A DNA stretch of 64,000 nt from an uncultured Bacteroides sp. (GTDB lineage Bacteria > Bacteroidota > Bacteroidia > Bacteroidales > GCA-2748055): assembly GCA_964458155.1 (NCBI GenBank), contig CAYWGP010000171.1, positions 11,073-75,072 on the forward strand, written 5' to 3'. Within the stretch, counting starts at the first letter, position 1. Each line of letters opens with the position of its first letter. Both the position numbers and the translations under genes were made by a program. The notes beneath the pieces are model-generated. The model worked only from the letters and a program-made list of their open reading frames with translations. It made no database searches and was not told the origin of the DNA. Positions 36,679 to 51,111 of the stretch are shown in pieces.

Positions 36679-38400
36679 CTAATCTAAGACTTTTCGGTCA
36701 ATTTCGGAAGCGGGTCCGCTTAAATGTAATGGAATACAGCTCCAGTTCATAAAGGTTTGGGATCTGAGGGTATCCTGCTGCCTGAGATATTCCATGAGGT
36801 AGTAACGAAGGTCCCTGTCGGTGGACCAGGCTATACGCTTTGCCAGCTCCTCTCCGGGAATGCCGGCTCCAGTGGTCAGATGTCCGCCTCCACCGTTACC
36901 TCGGTAGGAGTTGATAGCCACACTGTACGTGTCTGTTTCCCGGAAGGGGCTTCCGTCAGAGAAAGACTGTATGCTGACCCGATCGCCGGGGACCCTGCTA
37001 ACATCGACTGTATAGTTTATTCCTGCAGCAGAGGAGAAATTATAATAGGGAGAGGCCAGACGGCCGGGCTGATCGGTGCTGAATTGAAGGAGGTGCTCCC
37101 CGGGACCGGACATGGTATTAAACCAGGGACCCACTGCATGCTCCAGAAATCCGTCAATCTCAGCTCCTGTTAGTTGCATCCGGTAAAGCATGTTTTCGAA
37201 GCGGTAAAGCTTAAACATATCGGACACCAGTAACGGTCCCTTTTTCAGTTTTGCATGGATGGAAAGAGGAGCGGTGAATGAGATCTTTGCACCTGTCATT
37301 TCCAGCTGGAGGCTATGTATTAAGCTCATCATGGATGAAGGGCCGAACAGAGCATCCACCCCTTCCATATCCTCTGAAAGCCAGGTAATGGTATCTTCCA
37401 GGTACTTTGATACGATTTCATATTCGGTGGCGAACTCTTCCAAAAAATCTTCGGAAGGCCTATAAGCGGACATGGGAATATTCTCACCTCTTATATTGTT
37501 ACCCTCCCTGGTGAAAGTGATTATTGCTTCTCCTGCAAAGCGACCGTGACTGCCCGGGTCAATGACCAGCACGCTGTCGCCCTCACAGTTGACTATCTTC
37601 TGTGACGAGACCCGGTGATCATGTCCGGCAAAAATTATATGGAATCCCGGCACCTGTTCGGCCACCAGCATAACAGCATTTTCATTCAGGTAGGGATCCG
37701 GATTTCCTCCATAGGAAGCATCCGTTCCGGAATGGAACAGGCCCACCATCAGATCCGGATTCTCCTCTTTTATTATCCGTGGAACCCATTCCCGGGCCGT
37801 GGCGATCATATCCAGGAATTCCATTTCGGGCCACAGATTTTTTGGAAGCCACTGTGGAATCCCGGGGGTGATAAGACCAAGTATGGCTATTTTCTTCCGT
37901 CCTGCTTTCAGAATGGTATAGGGTGCAAAGTAGGGTAAGCTGGTCGTGCTGTTCACCGCATTTGCCGCCAGCCAAGGAAACTGGAATGTACTCCTGACTC
38001 TGTCATACACTTCTGGTCCGGTTTCAATATCATGATTTCCAACAGTCCCGGCAGCATATCCCATGTAATTCATTACCCTGGACGAAAGGTGTTCCTGGGT
38101 GGTATCCACAAAATTGTAGTAGTAAACAGAAGGCTGGCCCTGCAAAAAATCACCATTGTCGAGGAGGAAAAAAAGGGTATCCTCATTCGCCCGTTTCCGG
38201 CTTACATAACTATATACGTGAGAAAGGGAATTATCTGTTTTCTGCCGGCTGATGAAATCCCTGGGGAAAATCATTCCATGTACATCTGTTGTAGTAGCTA
38301 TCCTGATGGTCATCTGCTCCTGTCTGCAGGAGGTGCTCAAGATCAGAATAGTCAGTAAAACAGTCAATAATCGGGCTTTTCCCATCATGTTTTTTAGCAT
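36679..38400 (-). CDS. Bifunctional metallophosphatase / 5'-nucleotidase (lipoprotein)
   Basis: 573 aa with a lipobox (ILSTSC), calcineurin-like motifs (TTDVHG, DNGDFLQG, GNHD, GHDH) and a C-terminal 5'-nucleotidase domain. Confidence 0.88.
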   Translation of the reverse strand: MLKNMMGKARLLTVLLTILILSTSCRQEQMTIRIATTTDVHGMIFPRDFISRQKTDNSLSHVYSYVSRKRANEDTLFFLLDNGDFLQGQPSVYYYNFVDTTQEHLSSRVMNYMGYAAGTVGNHDIETGPEVYDRVRSTFQFPWLAANAVNSTTSLPYFAPYTILKAGRKKIAILGLITPGIPQWLPKNLWPEMEFLDMIATAREWVPRIIKEENPDLMVGLFHSGTDASYGGNPDPYLNENAVMLVAEQVPGFHIIFAGHDHRVSSQKIVNCEGDSVLVIDPGSHGRFAGEAIITFTREGNNIRGENIPMSAYRPSEDFLEEFATEYEIVSKYLEDTITWLSEDMEGVDALFGPSSMMSLIHSLQLEMTGAKISFTAPLSIHAKLKKGPLLVSDMFKLYRFENMLYRMQLTGAEIDGFLEHAVGPWFNTMSGPGEHLLQFSTDQPGRLASPYYNFSSAAGINYTVDVSRVPGDRVSIQSFSDGSPFRETDTYSVAINSYRGNGGGGHLTTGAGIPGEELAKRIAWSTDRDLRYYLMEYLRQQDTLRSQTFMNWSCIPLHLSGPASEIDRKVLD

Positions 38401-39858: not shown

Positions 39859-40554
39859 TTAGCCTGTTTCGCTGATTTGTTTTATGCGCTTATAGTCGAT
39901 AACCTCAATGGATTTCCCATCCATCTTGATGAGGCCCTCGTCGTTAAACTCCTTCAGCATCCGGATGACCGTTTCGGGGCTCATGCCGGATAATTCGGCC
40001 AGCTCTTTCCTGGATAATGGCAGGTCAAATTCACAATTTTTAAAGATCCGGTCTGCCAGGCACAACAGGATGTCAGCAAGTCTGCCAAAAGCCTGCTTGT
40101 AAGTAAAGCAAAAGAACCTTCCGTATATCTGCAGACTGTTGGAGCTAAGAATATCAATAATTTCTTTTGTGAAATCAAAATTCTCCTTCATCAGGGTACG
40201 GAATGCTTTTACTTCTATTTGCCTGATCTCAGAGTCAATATAGGCCGTGGCAGAGTAGGGGAAATAGGCGTGCTCTTCCGAAACAGAAGAAAGCCCGAGA
40301 AAATTCCTGTCCGGCGTGATCCGCAGTATAAGGGAATTGCTTCCATTTTCCAGGAAAACCTTGGCTAGCCCCGATTCCATATATATTACATGAGATACAA
40401 AGCCGCCTTGTTTGCATATGACCTCTCCTTTCCTGTACTTAATTCTGACAGAGTTCTCATCCAGGAATTCCTTCTGCCCGGGAGTAAGATGCTCGAAGCA
40501 GCGGCACTCGTGGAAACTCAGGGTGCATGCAGAAAACTTTATTGACTCGTCCAT
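39859..40554 (-). CDS. Crp/Fnr-family transcriptional regulator with N-terminal Cys residues
   Basis: It has a cNMP-binding-like beta-roll and a C-terminal HTH (SRKELAELSGMSPETVIRMLKEF). ATG at 40554 is preferred because the GTG at 40575 overlaps a TATATTTG -7 box. The N-terminus reads MDESIKFSACTLSFHECRC. Confidence 0.85.
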   Translation of the reverse strand: MDESIKFSACTLSFHECRCFEHLTPGQKEFLDENSVRIKYRKGEVICKQGGFVSHVIYMESGLAKVFLENGSNSLILRITPDRNFLGLSSVSEEHAYFPYSATAYIDSEIRQIEVKAFRTLMKENFDFTKEIIDILSSNSLQIYGRFFCFTYKQAFGRLADILLCLADRIFKNCEFDLPLSRKELAELSGMSPETVIRMLKEFNDEGLIKMDGKSIEVIDYKRIKQISETG

Positions 40555-40574
40555 CCATCTATGCTTAGAGTTCA

Positions 40575-40582
40575 CAAATATA
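40575..40582 (-). promoter_or_regulatory. -7 promoter box (TATATTTG on the minus strand) for the FNR-like regulator
   Basis: Plus-strand CAAATATA lies 21 nt upstream of the ATG at 40554. Confidence 0.4.
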
Positions 40583-40602: not shown

Positions 40603-40644
40603 TTGATTTGTGTCAGCTTCTTACTCCATTTAAATCAGTTAAAA
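40603..40644. promoter_or_regulatory. Conserved 42-nt block with an FNR-like box, TTGAT-TTGT-GTCAG, copy 1
   Basis: 33 of 42 nt are identical to 42229-42270 within otherwise dissimilar intergenic DNA. The block starts exactly 183 nt before the ATG at 40786. Confidence 0.55.
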
Positions 40645-40785: not shown

Positions 40786-42138
40786 ATGAGAAACTTAAAG
40801 AATGGTTCAGTACGGATTGTTTTCTTAATAATACTATTAAGCGCTGTGATTGGGTGCACTAATTACCAGATTCCAGGGAGTACTTCACCTGGACCAGAGG
40901 AAAACAATTGTGAGACGTGCCATACTGACTATGACCGCCTGGTAGAAGTATATACACCTGATACAGTGGCTCCTGTAAAGGGCTACGGTGTGGAGGCCCC
41001 TCAGTATGCGCCCTATGACCGGGTTTTTTTAGGAGGTAGCGGCTATGATTCTTATAAAGCATCGGGACACTACGCGGTAGGTTGTACAGGCTGTCATAAC
41101 GGCGATGGTGGTACCGGGGAGAAAGATCTTGCTCATACGGGGGATTTCATTTCCCATCCTTCCCAGTTCTATGAAGACAAATGCGCTGCCTGCCACCAGG
41201 ATATTACAAATGATTTTACAAGCAGTATTCATAATGGTACAGGTTTGAAACGTATGGTGGCTATGCGAAGCGGGCTAAGTGGGGCTTCCGAATTTGATCA
41301 GCTTCCACAGCATCAGATAGATGGCTACAATGATAATTGTGCAATATGTCACGGAGACTGTGGTAACTGTCATGTGGTCAGGCCACCCATGAGTGGTGGG
41401 GGATTGGCAGATGGTCATAATTTTAATAAAACACCCGATATGTCCAATGTCTGTCTGAGCTGTCATGCCGAAACTATAGGTCATGATTTCCAGGGTATCG
41501 ATCCGGCTACTGAGCCTGATATTCACCTGACTCTGAATGACTTTGATTGTCTTAGTTGTCATGACGGCCCTGAATTGCATGGGGATGGTCAGCCAGTGGA
41601 CCAGCGCTATGCTTACGCTGAGCTCCCCGAGTGTGAGAGTTGCCACACCGGAATAGAAACTGCAAATAACTTTCATACGGTACATATTGGCGATTTCAAT
41701 TGCCAGGTGTGCCATTCCCAGGACTTCAATAACTGTGGCAGCTGCCATATCGGAGGTGATGACGCCAGAATCCCTGCATATCTGGGTTTCAAGATCGCAG
41801 TCAATCCGCTACCCGATCTGATGGATTATTCATTTACTTTGGTCAGAAGAACAACGACTGCCCCGGATAACTGGGTAGAGTATGGTGTGGCTGAGTATGC
41901 AGACTTTGATGTGCATCCAACATATAACTATGCATCCCCCCATAACATTTTAAGGTTGACCGACCGGACTGATGTAGGAACAGAAAGTTGTAATTCTAAT
42001 TGCCACATCCGCAAGGAAGGGGAGACATACGTGAACAAAGAACTGTATCTGTTCCAGTCTGACCTGCTGGACTGGGAGATGGATGCAGATAGTGCTATCA
42101 TTGTTGATGGTAAGCTGCCCGACTACTGGATGAACTAA
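40786..42138 (+). CDS. Decahaem c-type cytochrome lipoprotein with an additional CX3CH motif, paralog 1
   Basis: ATG at 40786 gives MRNLKNGSVRIVFLIILLSAVIGC, a lipobox. There are ten CxxCH motifs plus C-terminal CNSNCH. Confidence 0.9.
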   Translation: MRNLKNGSVRIVFLIILLSAVIGCTNYQIPGSTSPGPEENNCETCHTDYDRLVEVYTPDTVAPVKGYGVEAPQYAPYDRVFLGGSGYDSYKASGHYAVGCTGCHNGDGGTGEKDLAHTGDFISHPSQFYEDKCAACHQDITNDFTSSIHNGTGLKRMVAMRSGLSGASEFDQLPQHQIDGYNDNCAICHGDCGNCHVVRPPMSGGGLADGHNFNKTPDMSNVCLSCHAETIGHDFQGIDPATEPDIHLTLNDFDCLSCHDGPELHGDGQPVDQRYAYAELPECESCHTGIETANNFHTVHIGDFNCQVCHSQDFNNCGSCHIGGDDARIPAYLGFKIAVNPLPDLMDYSFTLVRRTTTAPDNWVEYGVAEYADFDVHPTYNYASPHNILRLTDRTDVGTESCNSNCHIRKEGETYVNKELYLFQSDLLDWEMDADSAIIVDGKLPDYWMN

Positions 42139-42228: not shown

Positions 42229-42270
42229 CTGATTTGAATCAGCTTCAGACTGCACCTAAATCAGTTTAAA
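42229..42270 (+). promoter_or_regulatory. Conserved 42-nt block with a palindromic FNR-like box, CTGAT-TTGA-ATCAG, copy 2
   Basis: CTGAT/ATCAG are perfect inverted half-sites with N4 spacing. The block starts exactly 183 nt before the ATG at 42412. Confidence 0.55.
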
Positions 42271-42411: not shown

Positions 42412-43776
42412 ATGAGAAACACAAAGTTTTTTTCAGGGCTGGCCCTATTGTTGATGGTGTTTTTAATTGCCGGGATCGGGTGCACGAATTACCAGGTTCC
42501 GGGAAGCGGGAATAATGGAGAGATCTCTGCCAACTCCTGCGAGGGATGCCACACGGATTATGACCGTCTGGTTGCTGTGCATTCACCTGATACTGCTGCG
42601 CCGGTTGGAGGTTGTGGTGGAGAGGCTCCTCATTACGAGCCATACGACCGGGTTTATCTTGGTGGGACGGGATATGACTCTTTTAAAGCTTCCGGTCATT
42701 ACAGTGTTGGATGTACAGGATGCCATAATGGAAATGGGAAGACGGGTGATAAGAATGAGGCCCATTCGGGTGATTGGATTTCCTCACCCTCCCTTGATCA
42801 CCAGGAGAAATGTGTTACCTGTCATGAGAGTGTAAGCGATGGTTTTGTCACCAGTATTCACAATGGAACCGGACAGAAGCGAAAGGTAACCATGCGATCG
42901 GGATTGGCAGGACCGGAAGAATTTGATCAGCTGCCCGCACACCAGATAGATGGCTATAACCAGAAATGTTCGGTATGCCATGGTACCTGTGGAAATTGCC
43001 ACGTTGTACGCCCCGACATTGCCGGGGGAGGCTTATCCAATGGACATAATTTCAATAAGACCCCGGATTGGTACAATATATGTTCGGCCTGCCATGTATC
43101 CAGGGGTGCGCACGCATTCCTTGGTGTGAATCCGGAAACTGAACCTGACTTTCACAGAGATGAGTTAGATTTTACCTGCCTGACATGCCATGATGGTGTT
43201 GAGCTTCACGGTGACGGACAGCCGGTAGAGCAGCGTTATGCCTATACCGAGCTGCCCGAGTGTGAAGATTGTCATGAGGGACTGGAAAGGGAGAACAATT
43301 TTCACTCGATGCACTATGACGATTTTCAGTGTCAGATCTGCCACTCTCAGGATTATAACAACTGTGGCGAGTGCCACATTGCAGATGGCCATGCTGAATA
43401 TGGGCCATATATGGACTTTAAGATCGCCATGAACACAATTCCTGATATTAAGGAACATAAGTTAGCCCTGGTTCGCCGCACCCTTGCTTACCCCGATAAC
43501 TGGGTGGGCTTTGGAGAGGATCTTACATATGATAACTTTGAGGAGTTTCCAACCTATAATTATACCACTCCTCATAATATACTGGAGAGAACCACACGCA
43601 CAGATGTGGGTAGTGGAGCCTGTTATTCCAATTGCCACATACGCAATGAAGGTGGAACACTGATTAATTCAGAGTATTATCTCTGGAAAGACAGTCTGCT
43701 TACATGGGAACTGGAGGCCACTCAGGCTTATGCTGTGGACGGGCAATTGCCAGCCTCCTGGTTCGAAGAAAAATAG
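42412..43776 (+). CDS. Decahaem c-type cytochrome lipoprotein with an additional CX3CH motif, paralog 2
   Basis: Lipobox MVFLIAGIGC. All ten CxxCH motifs sit at the same relative spacing as in paralog 1. The C-terminus has CYSNCH. Confidence 0.9.
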   Translation: MRNTKFFSGLALLLMVFLIAGIGCTNYQVPGSGNNGEISANSCEGCHTDYDRLVAVHSPDTAAPVGGCGGEAPHYEPYDRVYLGGTGYDSFKASGHYSVGCTGCHNGNGKTGDKNEAHSGDWISSPSLDHQEKCVTCHESVSDGFVTSIHNGTGQKRKVTMRSGLAGPEEFDQLPAHQIDGYNQKCSVCHGTCGNCHVVRPDIAGGGLSNGHNFNKTPDWYNICSACHVSRGAHAFLGVNPETEPDFHRDELDFTCLTCHDGVELHGDGQPVEQRYAYTELPECEDCHEGLERENNFHSMHYDDFQCQICHSQDYNNCGECHIADGHAEYGPYMDFKIAMNTIPDIKEHKLALVRRTLAYPDNWVGFGEDLTYDNFEEFPTYNYTTPHNILERTTRTDVGSGACYSNCHIRNEGGTLINSEYYLWKDSLLTWELEATQAYAVDGQLPASWFEEK

Positions 43777-43825
43777 CAAACAATTCCAACAATAGAAAAT
43801 AATGTTTAACCAAATCACTATTAAA

Positions 43826-44815
43826 ATGAAGATTATATCGAAGATGAAATTTTGGATGTTAGCCATCCTGGTTGTTCCATTTTTCCTGGTTTCCTGCGAC
43901 AATGATGAGGATCCCGAAGAGGTAAATGAAGCTGAAGTACTCATTGAATACATGGAAAATCCGGGATCGCCGGCTGCCAACTATGGCAACTCAGGTCTTG
44001 CTATCAAGAGTGCCGAGGCTACTCATGCAGGAGTGGTTGCGGACAATGTATATGTCATTGACATTCGAGCTGCTGCTGATTACACTACCGGTCACATCGA
44101 AGGAGCAGTAAATCTTGCTGCTGCTGATGTGAGGGCTCATATTGATGCCACCGATCTAAGCGCTTTCAATGAAATTCACATTGTATGTTATACCGGTCAG
44201 TCTGCTTCCTGGCTGACCAGCCTCCTGCAGCTGGCAGGTTACAAAAACGTTTATTCCATGAAATGGGGAATGAGCGGATGGCACTCTGACTTTGACAAAT
44301 GGACCGCAAATACCAACAGCGACAAGGCCACCCTTTTTGTAGAAGCTTCGACTGATAAAGCTGCTGAAGGAGATCTTCCTGTCCTGACTACCGGTTATGA
44401 AGAAGGAGTAGATATCTTTGAAGCCCGTTATGATGCAGTACTGGCCGAAGGTTTTGGCCCAGCCGCAGTTTCTCAGGGTGATGTATATGCCAGCCTGGAC
44501 AATTATTACATCATTAATTACTGGCCTAATGCTGAGTACATTGATCCGGGTCACATCGATGGCTCCATGCAGTATACTCCCAACGAGGACCTTCAGTTGG
44601 GCACTTACTTAAAGACTCTGCCTACCGACAAAACTATCGCTGTGTATTGCTATACCGGGCAGAACAGTGCAAGAATTGCAGCTTATCTGAGGCTTATGGG
44701 ATACGATGCCAAGTCACTGAAGTTTGGGGCCAACAGTATGATCTGGTCTGAGATGACCAAATCCAAGTGGACTCCTGAAGCACCAATGCAATATGATTAT
44801 GTTGGAATGAAATAA
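43826..44815 (+). CDS. Tandem-rhodanese (sulfurtransferase-like) lipoprotein
   Basis: Lipobox VVPFFLVSC followed by an acidic DNDEDPEE tail. There are two rhodanese domains, each with a catalytic-loop Cys (VCYTGQSAS, YCYTGQNSA). Alternative starts are at 43802 and 43844. Confidence 0.85.
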   Translation: MKIISKMKFWMLAILVVPFFLVSCDNDEDPEEVNEAEVLIEYMENPGSPAANYGNSGLAIKSAEATHAGVVADNVYVIDIRAAADYTTGHIEGAVNLAAADVRAHIDATDLSAFNEIHIVCYTGQSASWLTSLLQLAGYKNVYSMKWGMSGWHSDFDKWTANTNSDKATLFVEASTDKAAEGDLPVLTTGYEEGVDIFEARYDAVLAEGFGPAAVSQGDVYASLDNYYIINYWPNAEYIDPGHIDGSMQYTPNEDLQLGTYLKTLPTDKTIAVYCYTGQNSARIAAYLRLMGYDAKSLKFGANSMIWSEMTKSKWTPEAPMQYDYVGMK

Positions 44816-44860
44816 GCAAAAGTACTTTGATGCTAGTTTTAACATAGTAAGCTACAACTA

Positions 44861-44894
44861 TAAGGGTGCTCCTGTTTGGGCACCCTTATTTGTT
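44861..44894 (+). terminator. Rho-independent terminator after the rhodanese gene
   Basis: TAAGGGTGC (44861-44869) pairs with GCACCCTTA (44880-44888), followed by TTTGTT. Confidence 0.7.
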
Positions 44895-45077
44895 CTTTAT
44901 ATATCCGGGTTCCCAATAATTTTAGCCTTGCACCGCTTCAGGATCGGAAAAACAAAGAATTTATAATGGTTATAGATTAGGCATTCCGGGCAATTTTGGC
45001 CCGGATATTGAATTATAATTGATAAGAAATAGATTATTTTAGCGAACAAGTCTGAAATTATCAAAAAACAATTAGCT

Positions 45078-45605
45078 ATGTTGACAAAACGAATATTCAC
45101 TTTAGCCTTGATGGTCTTCTTTGCAGGGAGTGCACTGATGGCCCAGAATTTCAAGTACATTGGAGCAGCAAAATGTAAAATGTGTCATGTGAAGCCCGCT
45201 ACAGGTGAACAGTACAATATTTGGTTAAAAGGTCCCCATGCAGGAGCCATGAAAACCCTGGCCGGTGATGAAGCAAAGAAAATTGCCACTGAAAAGGGAA
45301 TTGCTGATCCCACAACGGATGCAGCCTGTATCAGCTGTCACGCTACTGTTGCCGGTGTTGATGCCAAACTAATTGCCAGTGCAAAAATGGATGAGGGTGT
45401 TTCCTGCGAAACCTGCCACGGACCAGGAAGCATGTACAAGGGAGCTTCGGTTATGAAGAACCGTGATCTGGCCCTAACAAAAGGAATGATAATTCCTACG
45501 GAGGAGACATGTACAGCCTGTCACAATGAAAAGAGTCCTACCTTTAAGGGCTTTAATTACACTGAGATGTTAGCTAAGATTGCTCATCCCAATCCTGCAA
45601 AATAA
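45078..45605 (+). CDS. Tetrahaem c-type cytochrome (cytochrome c554-like small multihaem protein), secreted
   Basis: 175 aa with a Sec signal peptide (AGSALMAQN) and four CxxCH motifs (CKMCH, CISCH, CETCH, CTACH). Confidence 0.88.
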   Translation: MLTKRIFTLALMVFFAGSALMAQNFKYIGAAKCKMCHVKPATGEQYNIWLKGPHAGAMKTLAGDEAKKIATEKGIADPTTDAACISCHATVAGVDAKLIASAKMDEGVSCETCHGPGSMYKGASVMKNRDLALTKGMIIPTEETCTACHNEKSPTFKGFNYTEMLAKIAHPNPAK

Positions 45606-46533: not shown

Positions 46534-49335
46534 TTAATGTACTCCTCCTGCAATGAGAGTGTAAACAATAGCTATGATCAGGAGGATCCCAATGATCAGT
46601 GCCGTAAATCCCAGGATTCTAATCATGCGCATGTAATCTTTGGAGAATTCTTTCGCATGGACTCGTTGATCCAGCTTTCCGGCCTCTTTTAATTCCTCGT
46701 ATTCCCGGGGACGTTCATGTTTGAAGTGTTCAAGGGGCATATATCCCGTAAATATTACGGTATCCATGGGGAAAGCTTCCGGCCTGAAATGTGTATTGAA
46801 GAAGTGGATGGTGAAAATAAATCCAACCGCCAGCAGCGCTTCATCACTGTGAATGATCTGGCTTATATTGATGAGCCATCCCGGGAAGAAACGGGTGAAG
46901 AATACCGGGAACCACAGTACAAGGCCGCTGAATCCGATTACTGCAACCCCCCAGAAGACAGCAATGTAGTCAAACTTCTCCCAGTAGGTCCATCTGCCAT
47001 AATAAGGCCTGGGACCTTTTCCAAGGAACCATTTTATAGTGGCAACGAAATCCCTTATATCCTGCTTGTTGAACCAGAGAGTGTCTTTGCCAAAAATAAA
47101 TTTGGTCATGGAAAGCCTTTTCCTCCTTTTCTCCCGAATCAGGTTAAAAATGTGGAAGGCGAAATAGCCAAAGGTGATTACAGCACCAATGCGATGTAGC
47201 ACGCCGGCAGTTTGGACACCTCCAAAGAACCTGGACAGAAACTTTGCCCAATCCATATGGGCAAACTTCAGCATCATTCCGGTCACGGCCAGAAGGATGA
47301 AACTAATAATTACGAAAATATGCGTGATCCGTTGGTTCTTGCTGAAGCGTTTATAGTAGAGATTCCCGGTTTCTTTGGGTCCTTCTTTCCTCTTTTTCCG
47401 TCTTTCTTTTACAGATCTGGGCAACCACATCAGGAGGTGAATTCCGAAGAAAGTAAATACACCCAGCAAAAGTGCGGTCATAAAGATATATGCATAATGC
47501 AATTTTGGATCATCTTTATGAGTGGCATGGCTCAAATAACCAGTAAAACGTTTGTTTGCTCCCTCATGGCAGCTTCCACAGGTTGTCACCAGGTTTTCTT
47601 CAGAGACCATGGATGCCGGGTTATTGGCCTTCAGGATATTGTGCGCACCATGACAATCGGAACACCTGGCGCTTTCATAGTAGCCCAGCTGATAGGCTTT
47701 GCCATGATAAGTTTGCATGTACGTTTTTGCCGTTTCCTCATGACAGGATCCACACTGGTGAGTAACTTCATTCATAAATTTATCCTGTCCAACAGTAGAA
47801 ATCTCATGTGCACTGTGACATTTAACGCAGGTGGGATACTCAGTACCCTGGGGGTCGGTTCTGTAGGCATGGTCGCTTTCCAGGTAGGTCTCATAGATTC
47901 CTTGATGACAGACCCCGCAGGTCGTCTGAACATTTGCAGGATGTACCGAAGAGCGTTCATCCTCCATTTTCAGCTCCATGTGGGAGGTGTGGCAGTCGGT
48001 ACATACAGCACTTACCGTTAATCCTTTGCCTGTGAGCCCCATGCCATGGACACTGGAGGAATAATCAGCCAAAGCATTGGTCTCAAGGATACCCTCCACC
48101 TCGGCTGCTAAGCCGTCCTCTCGGTGACATTCTCCGCACAATTGGGGGATTGCCATTCTGTAAACAGGGGAGGTGTCGTCGTATTTGGATTTAGTTGCAT
48201 GTGTCCCGTGACAATCGGTGCAGTAAGGGGCGTTTGCCTGATTATTATAATACGCCTGGCCATGCCCGCTTTCAAAGTACATACCAGAGATCTCGGCATG
48301 GCAGGATGAGCAGTCCACCGGCTGGTTGGTGGAGCAGGGGCGTTGCAGATGATCGGTAACCTGAGTATGACAATCGGTACACTGGATATTCTTGTGTACT
48401 GAATTGGGGAGCTCACGATTATCCCGGAATAAGGAAACAGTATCCCCCCCGACTATCTTATGCAAATTTTCATCCTGGTGGCACTTCATACATGCCTGGT
48501 CAGATATCCTGGCCTGAATCTTGGGTACGTCCACAATATGGGGCGGGTGACAGGAAGAACAGGCTGGAATGATACTTGGATTCTTCTCCCACAGCTCGCC
48601 CTTGATTACCTTTTTATGGGCTTCCTCAATTCTTGTGTGACATTTCATGCAGGTACCGGCAATCCTGTTTGTGGAAATGGAGGAATTGGGACTGGTATGA
48701 GGAAGCACCAGGTGGTTGCCGTGACAGTCGTTGCAGGTGGCAGTTACTACCAGTCCGGCTTCAAATAAGCCCTGGCCATGAATACCCTGGGTATAGTTCT
48801 CCACGATATTGTGTTCAGATACATCATATACCCTGGCCACAACCTCGCCCTCTTTGTGGCATCTTCCACAGAGGTAGGGAATATTCATCTTATAGGTGCG
48901 GGATGCTGTATTGCTGTTATGCAGGATATCGTGGTGACCGTGGCACTCCTTGCAGCTGGGAGCATTGGAATCATTACTTAAGAGAGCCTGTCCATGGACA
49001 CCTCTTACATTATTTTCCATCTCAACAGTATGGCAGCTTCCGCAATTGACCGGTTTCAGATCATCGGCATGGGGAAAACCTTCATCGGCAGCATCGGAAT
49101 GACAGGAGATACAGGTGTTGCTGTGGTGAACCGAGTGTGCAAAGATGGAGGTATCCACAAACATGGACACGGTCCTGCCATGGAGTAAACCGGTCAGTGA
49201 GCGGTCCTCATGGCACATCATACAATCCTCATCGGCCTGTGCAGTTACCAGGCCTGAAAACGAGCCTGCTACTATGAACAGAATGAACCAGAATGCCCTG
49301 GTTCTGGAGAGTGAAAACAAGTAATTATTGGTCAT
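46534..49335 (-). CDS. 19-haem c-type cytochrome fused to an integral-membrane cytochrome-b-like domain (CbcL-like quinol:cytochrome module)
   Basis: 933 aa with a signal peptide and 19 CxxCH motifs in aa 38-590, many of the paired form CxxCHGxH. From about aa 611 there are 5-6 TM helices with conserved His ([32 protein letters not shown]). Confidence 0.9.
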
Positions 49336-51087: not shown

Positions 51088-51111
51088 ATTGACTGACATA
51101 TATCAGTCAAT
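51088..51111. promoter_or_regulatory. 24-bp near-perfect palindrome with core CTGAC-ATAT-ATCAG in a divergent promoter region
   Basis: In ATTGACTGACAT|ATATCAGTCAAT, 11 of 12 positions pair. It lies between the cytochrome operon (start 50959, minus strand) and the second FNR-like regulator (51158, plus strand). Confidence 0.6.

Follow-up and report, generated by a model that had tools for sequence, protein, structure and literature searches.

A two-site rhodanese lipoprotein paired with a Cys/Sec multihaem cytochrome family, a candidate sulfur carrier for a respiratory reductase

We analyzed a 64,000-nucleotide (nt) stretch of DNA, referred to here as the window, from an uncultured Bacteroides sp. 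(GenBank assembly GCA_964458155.1, contig CAYWGP010000171.1, positions 11,073 to 75,072). The window encodes a lipoprotein with two rhodanese domains directly downstream of decaB, the gene for a lipoprotein cytochrome with 11 haem motifs, and the same gene pair was found at every cytochrome locus in other genomes where enough downstream DNA was available. The best explanation of these data, and one that we regard as reasonably probable, is that the rhodanese would act as a persulfide/polysulfide carrier feeding a multihaem respiratory reductase in which a reactive cysteine (Cys) alternates with selenocysteine (Sec). The features on which this reading is built are as follows.

43826..44815, forward strand: tandem-rhodanese lipoprotein gene, 329 amino acids (aa), from the open reading frame (ORF) and Pfam
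43826..43897, forward strand: predicted type II signal peptide with lipobox L-V-S-C24, Cys codon 43895-43897, read from the sequence
43898..43921, forward strand: acidic post-Cys tail DNDEDPEE (mature end C-DNDEDPEE), resembling a lipoprotein export signal (LES)
44003..44305, forward strand: rhodanese domain 1, with D79-x-R81 and catalytic Cys121 (44186-44188) in CYTGQSA
44468..44755, forward strand: rhodanese domain 2, with catalytic Cys275 (44648-44650) in CYTGQNS
42412..43776, forward strand: decaB, lipoprotein cytochrome with 10 CXXCH, a CX3CH (43621-43638), and a free Cys68 (42613-42615) in a GGCGG loop
43777..43825, forward strand: gap between decaB and the rhodanese gene, 49 nt, unstructured, with neither a terminator nor an FNR-like box
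44860..44899, forward strand: intrinsic terminator 3' of the rhodanese gene, 12-bp stem and U-rich tail

The rhodanese gene is fixed to the cytochrome gene across phyla

The pairing of the two genes was constant. Among cytochrome-centred loci with enough downstream DNA, the rhodanese gene lay directly downstream of the cytochrome gene in all 77 from Bacteroidota and in all 78 from Ignavibacteriota, Calditrichota, Desulfobacterota, and other groups (155/155 combined, from at least four phyla). The original prediction, made from the sequence of the window alone, had proposed co-occurrence in other genomes as a check on the link between the two families, and these loci bear it out. Because the same arrangement recurs in ~160 genomes, it lies far beyond chance. 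A rhodanese-centred survey of 53 species-level genomes agreed: whenever the rhodanese was at least ~42% identical and upstream DNA was present, a decahaem homologue stood immediately upstream on the same strand, in every locus. The gap between the genes had a median of 45 nt in 162 non-redundant pairs (interquartile range 38-52) and exceeded 150 nt in three. In a mirror-tree comparison, the distance matrices of the rhodanese and the cytochrome correlated (r = 0.72, a value reached by 0/500 permutations), with the rhodanese diverging ~1.2x faster than the cytochrome.

In the window itself, the original prediction had placed the rhodanese gene close behind the decahaem gene and ahead of a strong terminator. 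Measurement upheld this, as the gap after the decaB stop (43776) is 49 nt, or 25 nt if an alternative upstream ATG at 43802 is used, which would give a 337-aa product, and a strong terminator is found only after the rhodanese. We took 43826 as the start because homologues mostly begin at this second ATG, which is the one kept among them (MKIISKMKFWML... here, MKIMTKTKVWML... in most relatives). The 49-nt gap has a fold energy of -0.2 kcal/mol, i.e., no hairpin. The terminator stem (44860-44889), in comparison, has 12 pairs and folds at -20.3 kcal/mol (z = -4.6), and 0/200 shuffles fold as well. Co-transcription of decaB and the rhodanese gene is strongly implied by the 45-nt median gap, the unstructured gap, and the position of the terminator after the rhodanese only.

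Two further features bear on control of the pair.

39859..40575, reverse strand: Crp/Fnr-family regulator (Pfam), near the module in most of the 77 Bacteroidota loci
42229..42242, no strand assigned: perfect palindrome CTGATTTGAATCAG, an FNR/Crp-type box 170-183 nt upstream of decaB

The regulator gene is divergent from the module and upstream of it in most Bacteroidota loci. Of 140 other loci, 21 had a similar box upstream of the cytochrome; no cytochrome-rhodanese gap contained one. The CTGATTTGAATCAG box is likely a control site of the decaB-rhodanese unit. Taken together, synteny, short gaps, correlated divergence, the Crp/Fnr regulator, and the box make it very likely that decaB and the rhodanese gene form a bicistronic unit under Crp/Fnr control.

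Both rhodanese domains keep their active-site Cys

Pfam family PF00581 matched the protein in two stretches (88.4 bits, cut-off 22.2). The two catalytic Cys loops read in the original prediction, CYTGQSA and CYTGQNS, are both present and are invariant in 36 homologues. In this 36-member alignment, which extends down to 32% identity, the lipid Cys, D79-x-R81, and both catalytic Cys are invariant, as are the G and Q after each catalytic Cys and several Trp/Gly positions. Both loops are of the six-residue CX5 type (C121-YTGQS-A and C275-YTGQN-S), with no Arg at +6. Assignment to the arsenate-reductase/Cdc25 type was rejected on the lack of a seven-residue CX5R loop. A search of 5.8 billion proteins returned 2205 homologues, annotated at most as "rhodanese-like."

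The AlphaFold2 model of the rhodanese was confident, with a predicted local distance difference test (pLDDT) score of 91.8 and a predicted template modeling (pTM) score of 0.87. Its Foldseek matches were sulfurtransferases, with 6MXV the best (E 4e-11), followed by SseA, RhdA, and TST. A search with the family profile also gave 6MXV as the closest solved structure (E 2e-22), and it alone matched Sud (1QXN, E 1.5e-4), which Foldseek did not. Global superposition on tandem rhodaneses was poor (template modeling [TM] score 0.26-0.35, root-mean-square deviation 15-19 Å), whereas single domains fit well, and the two domains are therefore arranged unlike those of the classical tandem enzymes. A classical tandem rhodanese (TST/RhdA/SseA) was rejected on that low global TM score and on the presence of a Cys in both domains.

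The window rhodanese reached no NCBIfam equivalog cut-off. Membership in GlpE (NF001195) or PspE (NF007627) was rejected at 65.6 and 43.6 bits, respectively, against a cut-off of 102; both models describe single-domain proteins of ~100 aa, whereas the window protein is a 329-aa tandem lipoprotein. We also rejected membership in ExtH (NF040901, a model of 430 positions with an equivalog cut-off of 200 bits), which the window protein did not match at E <= 0.01 and which a Calditrichales orthologue touched at 22.7 bits with its N-terminal part only. Judged by its sequence, the protein is a member of the rhodanese superfamily that is neither ExtH, nor GlpE/PspE, nor a classical TST-type tandem rhodanese.

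The N-terminus satisfies the lipobox pattern [LVI][ASTVI][GAS]C with MKIISKMKFWMLAILVVPFFLVS-C24, and the protein is accordingly a predicted lipoprotein. In Bacteroidota, the LES is an acidic run after the +1 Cys, of the form CS(D/E)2-3, K-(D/E)2, or Q-A-(D/E)2 (PMC6222051), and it is required for surface exposure (PMC6222051; PMC5080379). Four of the five residues at +2 to +6 of the rhodanese are acidic, and among ~12 lipoprotein-like ORFs in the window it is the sole one with three or more acidic residues there. The original prediction of a lipoprotein with an acidic tail stands, as the LVSC lipobox and the C-DNDEDPEE end fit the published Bacteroidota LES, with the detail that the +2 residue is Asp and not the Ser or Lys of the published motifs.

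The partner belongs to a Cys/Sec cytochrome family remotely related to octahaem tetrathionate reductases

The cytochrome family has 924 close homologues and 783 representatives in the 50%-identity cluster library, occurs in at least 486 species-level genomes, and has no functional name. Its CX3CH motif is invariant, and Cys68, within a Gly-rich GGCGGE loop, is near-invariant. In an exhaustive hidden Markov model search, ~38 of the 150 best representatives began within ~10 residues after the Cys68 column, which is the pattern that truncation of ORFs by an in-frame stop would give. The DNA of three such distant members has a TGA exactly at the Cys68 column (3/3), and a signal peptide and first haem motif are encoded in frame 5' of each TGA. 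The three genes are listed here with U for the Sec position.

L273:1688-3109: Sec-type cytochrome, GEGEG-U-GGSVPPVEAW
L275:42-1394: Sec-type cytochrome, GGDG-U-GGDVPELEAW
L276:522-1844: Sec-type cytochrome, SEGEG-U-AKAMAQLEPYEKVF

Downstream of the L273 gene lies a tandem-rhodanese lipoprotein gene whose product shares 33% identity with the window protein (E 1e-45) and has both Cys loops and a CSDDDDDNP tail. The L276 gene is followed by a single-domain rhodanese, and the L275 gene by a lipoprotein starting ...VGCSDDDNG, inside whose gene the contig ends. A rhodanese again follows the Sec-type cytochrome in at least two of the three members checked. The Cys/Sec alternation marks a redox-active nucleophile, and the rhodanese pairing therefore extends to the Sec branch. 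From these reading frames, a widespread selenoprotein family appears to have been cut in two by annotation.

Gene callers split the Sec-type members at the TGA (G-U-GG) into ORFs of 60-80 aa and 370-390 aa. In L273, the first haem motif reads CVEGH, with the second Cys missing. Strict DNA patterns for a Sec codon at Cys68 gave 3 matches in genome contigs and 56 in metagenome contigs, all unrelated; these patterns failed because distant members do not keep P..YDRV. A hairpin resembling a selenocysteine insertion sequence was predicted after the L273 UGA, but it did not outperform shuffled versions of this GC-rich stretch (z = -1.1) and was not used.

Profile searches with hmmsearch gave octahaem tetrathionate reductase (OTR, 1SP3) as the best solved relative of the cytochrome (E 1.2e-5), with weaker matches to MtrF and MccSep (E 2.7e-3 for MccSep). 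Alignment with hhalign against Bacteroidota OTR-family proteins had a probability of 95% (E 2e-8, 165 columns), consistent with a remote relationship of the family to the OTRs. The original prediction had treated the partner as part of an electron-conduit cluster. This view needs correction, as the Cys/Sec position and the OTR relationship point to an enzyme; the partner is probably a catalytic OTR-related enzyme rather than a passive electron conduit. Several cytochromes of the family (P0175, P0183, P0194, P0438, and others) carry the JGI/IMG label "thiosulfate/3-mercaptopyruvate sulfurtransferase" and have no rhodanese domain.

The window holds a second copy of the cytochrome gene.

40786..42138, forward strand: decaA, lineage-specific decaB paralogue, with Tyr at the Cys68 column and without a rhodanese gene of its own

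Both decaA and decaB encode 10 CXXCH motifs, one CX3CH motif, and a lipobox. Around the Cys68 column, decaA reads VKGYGVEAP and decaB VGGCGGEAP, and the decaA copy may have lost the catalytic nucleophile. The duplication is considered lineage-specific because the closest relatives (L001-L003 and L053) carry one cytochrome gene.

Rhodanese paralogues lie among genes of sulfur metabolism

Rhodanese homologues below ~40% identity occur without the decahaem protein, in sulfur-related neighbourhoods. One kind of neighbour is a true OTR-family octahaem protein (TIGR04315, 559 bits, cut-off 375) together with a cytochrome b and a YeeE/YedE half; another is a PhsA-like molybdopterin subunit (453 bits) with 4Fe-4S and NrfD subunits. 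Other paralogue neighbours are TusA, an 11-haem ExtM-like protein (236 bits), and an OprO/P-type porin weakly matching ExtI. In two metagenome-assembled genomes, the cytochrome-rhodanese module itself sits inside a larger sulfur island (L005, 3143-17367; L006, 1664-11023). Because of the paralogue neighbourhoods, we consider the rhodanese family as a whole to be embedded in extracytoplasmic sulfur-compound metabolism.

On one side of the L005/L006 island are TusA, an OTR-family octahaem protein, cytochrome b, a YeeE half, and a 398-aa rhodanese-like protein; on the other are PhsA-like, 4Fe-4S, and NrfD subunits, YeeE halves, and a single-domain rhodanese. Three Flavobacteriia loci (L037:1287-13088; L040, from Jejuia pallidilutea DSM 21165; and L034) carry two tandem-rhodanese lipoprotein paralogues in a row and then an OprO/P-type porin with a weak match to ExtI. 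Preceding these paralogues are PhsABC-like genes, YeeE halves, and an 11-haem ExtM-like cytochrome, and a cultured strain is included among the carriers. In some Bacteroidales, a lipoprotein of ~620 aa with four rhodanese domains, equivalent to two tandem units fused, was found at L044:9821-11689, L049:8012-9892, and L052:6942-8813. The Cys loop is kept in each of its domains, and an ExtI-like porin gene comes after it.

Comparison with known rhodanese-reductase systems

The only precedent named in the original prediction was ExtH of the Geobacter extHIJKL cluster. This was too narrow, as Sud-Psr, PhsE-Phs, SbdP, and a decahaem-rhodanese cluster in Dethiobacter alkaliphilus (PMC10376724) are further cases. 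ExtH (GSU2940) is a rhodanese lipoprotein whose relatives are often swapped between clusters (PMC6148476). ExtKL of the same cluster is MccSep, a tetrameric pentahaem selenoprotein published in August 2026, in which polysulfide reduction takes place at a His/Cys-ligated haem and depends on a Sec. Respiration of elemental sulfur requires this enzyme (PMC13510729). Together with the Cys/Sec variants of the partner family described here, the identity of ExtKL reinforces the link to sulfur or selenium chemistry that the original prediction had drawn from ExtH. Like ExtH, the window protein is a lipoprotein rhodanese encoded with a Sec/Cys multihaem cytochrome c, with a link to sulfur (and selenite) reduction, and its paralogues also adjoin ExtI-like porins and ExtM-like cytochromes. 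The two nevertheless belong to different families (329 aa here versus a 430-position model), and the partner in the window has 10+1 haem motifs and is OTR-related, whereas MccSep has 5 haems. Unlike extHIJKL, the core module here has no porin or ExtJ, and its pairing does not vary, whereas other rhodaneses often take the place of ExtH.

Sud of Wolinella succinogenes binds polysulfide sulfur on a Cys and delivers it to the polysulfide reductase Psr. The role proposed here, that of a rhodanese-fold carrier for a respiratory reductase, would be like that of Sud, and profile searches detect 1QXN. However, Sud is a soluble single-domain homodimer serving a molybdoenzyme, whereas the window protein is a lipid-anchored tandem with two sites and a multihaem partner. 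PhsE of Desulfitobacterium hafniense is described, in the account of Prat et al. 2012 given in PMC6148476, as a tandem rhodanese that has two active sites and is encoded together with a thiosulfate reductase. Going by this description, PhsE and the window protein alike keep the catalytic Cys in both domains and are encoded beside a sulfur-compound reductase (a putative one here), but the partner of PhsE is a Phs-type molybdoenzyme. To our knowledge, PhsE, which is from a Gram-positive source, has neither a lipobox nor an acidic tail. Among the structural matches, 6MXV, a rhodanese-like protein of Francisella tularensis, also has two rhodanese domains, but in an arrangement that differs from that of the window protein. 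In TST (bovine), RhdA, and SseA, only the C-terminal domain is catalytic, whereas both domains keep the Cys in the window protein, and none of these four is, unlike the window protein, a lipoprotein partnered with a cytochrome. By analogy, the function would resemble that of SbdP with its sulfur reductase, besides ExtH-MccSep, Sud-Psr, and PhsE-Phs.

A case of similar gene content is D. alkaliphilus, which lacks Dsr and molybdenum sulfur reductases (PMC10376724). Its cluster 5-T encodes DealDRAFT_1917 (a 10-haem "hypothetical protein," 39.3 kDa), DealDRAFT_1918 (rhodanese, 34.8 kDa), and a 28.8-kDa helix-turn-helix (HTH) regulator, and DealDRAFT_1917 was significantly more abundant in thiosulfate-grown than in ferrihydrite-grown cells, with the rhodanese among the most abundant proteins in both conditions (PMC10376724). 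In that study, DealDRAFT_1917, which had earlier borne the erroneous name "thiosulfate sulfurtransferase," was regarded as a relative of SirA/Otr-like octahaem proteins, and the role of the rhodanese was not discussed (PMC10376724). By description, the three-gene pattern of 10-haem protein, rhodanese, and HTH regulator is like that of the window. The size of DealDRAFT_1917 (39.3 kDa) equals that of a Sec-truncated C-terminal piece, and its erroneous name is the one that JGI gives to both Cys-type and Sec-cut members of the window cytochrome family. The D. alkaliphilus proteins were not found by name among the family representatives. Unlike the window host, D. alkaliphilus has a Gram-positive-type envelope, so lipoprotein sorting and the question of surface versus periplasm differ.

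A proposed sulfur carrier for a multihaem reductase, and rival readings

In the mechanism that we favor, one transcript would serve for both the upstream 11-haem lipoprotein cytochrome and the rhodanese. Cys121 and Cys275 of the rhodanese would take up sulfur in the form of a protein-bound persulfide or polysulfide, the source being thiosulfate, polysulfide, or elemental sulfur, and present it to Cys68 of the cytochrome (Sec in other lineages), held in the flexible GGCGG loop. The haem chain of the cytochrome would then reduce the S-S (or Se-S) bond to sulfide. Electrons would run from quinol, via a 19-haem/cytochrome b protein and a c554 tetrahaem encoded nearby, to the cytochrome, with the Crp/Fnr regulator governing expression. 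Sulfur loading, the hand-over from protein to protein, the reductive direction, the substrate, and the cellular side are elements that we infer.

Several observations weigh against this mechanism, and the main unexplained one is a disparity between the tails of the two lipoproteins. Counting a tail as acidic when at least two of the residues at +2 to +6 are D/E, 90% of the rhodaneses but 18% of the cytochromes in 61 Bacteroidota pairs have one; in Ignavibacteriota and other groups, both tails are often acidic (rhodanese 83%, cytochrome 73%). Taken at face value, the Bacteroidota figures would put the rhodanese on the surface and have the cytochrome face the periplasm. If the LES works as in Bacteroides, the two partners would be found on either side of the outer membrane, a placement that speaks against direct contact, and the disparity is hard to square with a direct hand-over of sulfur. 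Both Cys loops also lack the basic residues of classical thiosulfate rhodaneses. The AlphaFold2 model of decaB, from a 50-sequence alignment, was poor (pLDDT 59.4, pTM 0.50), a Foldseek search with it against the PDB gave nothing usable (best E = 8.8), and no active site was seen in it. The runs holding the locus are marine-sediment DNA metagenomes, among which no RNA run was found. The data leave the direction, reduction or oxidation, unconstrained. Finally, DealDRAFT_1917 is a probable member of the cytochrome family and DealDRAFT_1918 a putative relative of the rhodanese, both judged from their descriptions.

The split between a surface-type rhodanese tail and a periplasm-type cytochrome tail is itself the basis of a bolder form of the proposal, a trans-outer-membrane relay. 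Here the substrate would be the persulfide or polysulfide on the two Cys of the rhodanese, not a free anion; the Bacteroidota rhodanese would be flipped outside by its LES, the cytochrome would be periplasmic, and the pair would respire insoluble sulfur or polysulfide without a molybdoenzyme. We think this rather unlikely as it stands. If it were true, non-sulfate-reducing sediment Bacteroidales, Ignavibacteria, and Calditrichia would respire elemental sulfur or polysulfide.

Gene order sets no direction, and the pair could instead work oxidatively, with the rhodanese mobilizing sulfur from sulfide, elemental sulfur, thiosulfate, or metal sulfides and the Cys/Sec cytochrome oxidizing it in the manner of the His/Cys-haem enzymes TsdA and SoxAX, its electrons passing to the haem network, quinone, or an external acceptor. 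Enzymes of the OTR family are both reversible and promiscuous, the MccSep authors see a relation to TsdA and SoxAX chemistry run in reverse (PMC13510729), and an exported Acidithiobacillus rhodanese was induced on metal sulfides according to work cited in PMC6148476. We nevertheless consider oxidation unlikely, since the module adjoins a Crp/Fnr regulator and an FNR-type box, occurs with quinol-oxidizing CbcL-type proteins and elsewhere with PhsA-like reductases, and the Dethiobacter cytochrome rises during thiosulfate reduction. Carriers of the module are mostly fermentative or anaerobic sediment Bacteroidales and Ignavibacteria, which counts in the same direction. It is less probable again that the pair handles selenium or tellurium oxyanions, with the cytochrome reducing selenite-derived Se that the rhodanese binds as a Cys-S-Se adduct, in the way suggested for ExtH/ExtI of Geobacter. 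Marine sediments are poor in selenium oxyanions relative to sulfur species, the recurrent paralogue neighbours are sulfur genes (PhsA-like, YeeE, TusA), and the window protein has no match to the ExtH model. Such a role would fit the tie of ExtI/ExtH to selenite and tellurite reduction (PMC5877670), the weak matches of paralogue neighbours to the NCBIfam "selenite/tellurite reduction operon" models ExtM and ExtI, and several weak matches to selenium-related rhodanese families. MccSep also supports selenite-dependent viologen oxidation, but its physiological role turned out to be sulfur respiration.

The rhodanese could also be a maintenance factor for the Cys/Sec of the cytochrome, removing or adding persulfide, reducing an over-oxidized or disulfide form, or helping maturation, an idea to which we give slightly less credence than to the selenium one. 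Rhodanese-fold proteins can serve as thiol redox proteins, and the strict 1:1 pairing, the co-inheritance, and the conservation of a reactive Cys on both partners would all suit such a factor. However, two invariant loops and the high abundance of the Dethiobacter rhodanese suggest a stoichiometric carrier, and the paralogues pair with quite different sulfur enzymes that have no such Cys loop. That the adjacency is meaningless, and the protein a general extracytoplasmic rhodanese for cyanide or thiol detoxification like PspE/GlpE, seems to us highly improbable: rhodaneses are ubiquitous and the best named NCBIfam matches are GlpE and PspE (both below cut-off), but synteny in 155/155 loci over at least four phyla, short gaps, correlated divergence, and the pairing in Sec-type relatives speak against it.

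We found no paper describing the Bacteroidota/Ignavibacteriota module, and a dedicated two-site rhodanese lipoprotein with an LES-like tail, fixed to a large Cys/Sec multihaem family in several phyla, is undescribed save for the passing observation in Dethiobacter. Research into how elemental sulfur, polysulfide, and thiosulfate are respired in the absence of the classical molybdenum enzymes is at an early stage, and MccSep is the first multihaem selenoenzyme for molybdenum-free sulfur respiration. The module of Crp/Fnr regulator, 11-haem Cys/Sec cytochrome, and two-site rhodanese lipoprotein is a second, non-homologous candidate. Its carriers include many sediment heterotrophs (Bacteroidales, Ignavibacteria, Calditrichia) that are abundant but seldom classed as sulfur respirers. 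Should the carrier-reductase model be right, the assignment of cryptic sulfur cycling in sediments to taxa would change, and the long-enigmatic OTR-related cytochromes would acquire both a partner and a substrate. A widespread selenoprotein family, at present split by gene callers, should likewise be marked by the gene pair. Cultured carriers of the module exist, among them Stygiobacter electus 09-Me and Desulfatitalea alkaliphila M08but.

Control sites and neighbouring genes in the window

Three FNR/Crp-type palindromes (CTGAY-N4-RTCAG) occur in the window, upstream of decaA (40603-40616), upstream of decaB (42229-42242), and in the divergent region beside a second Crp-like regulator (51093-51106); only the copy at 42229 was called perfect. 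One-mismatch palindrome matches were overall not above chance, with 16 found and 10.3 expected. Scans for sigma-70 and Bacteroidetes -7 (TAnnTTTG) promoters gave matches at chance frequency, and neither detected decaB's own promoter. One TAnnTTTG match lies within decaB at 43533, ~290 nt 5' of the rhodanese.

The two candidate electron-transfer genes beside the module are as follows.

45078..45605, forward strand: tetrahaem c554-type cytochrome, a possible periplasmic electron shuttle, present in the window's subclade only
46534..49335, reverse strand: 19-haem/cytochrome b fusion, the likely quinol-oxidizing electron input

The c554-type tetrahaem protein matches the C-terminal part of NF041198, "UshA-like (seleno)protein," at 68.6 bits. 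A 5'-nucleotidase/UshA-like lipoprotein is encoded at the other edge of the cluster (36679-38400) and is syntenic in L001-L003 and L053, and this nucleotidase-like protein may be linked to the cytochrome island.

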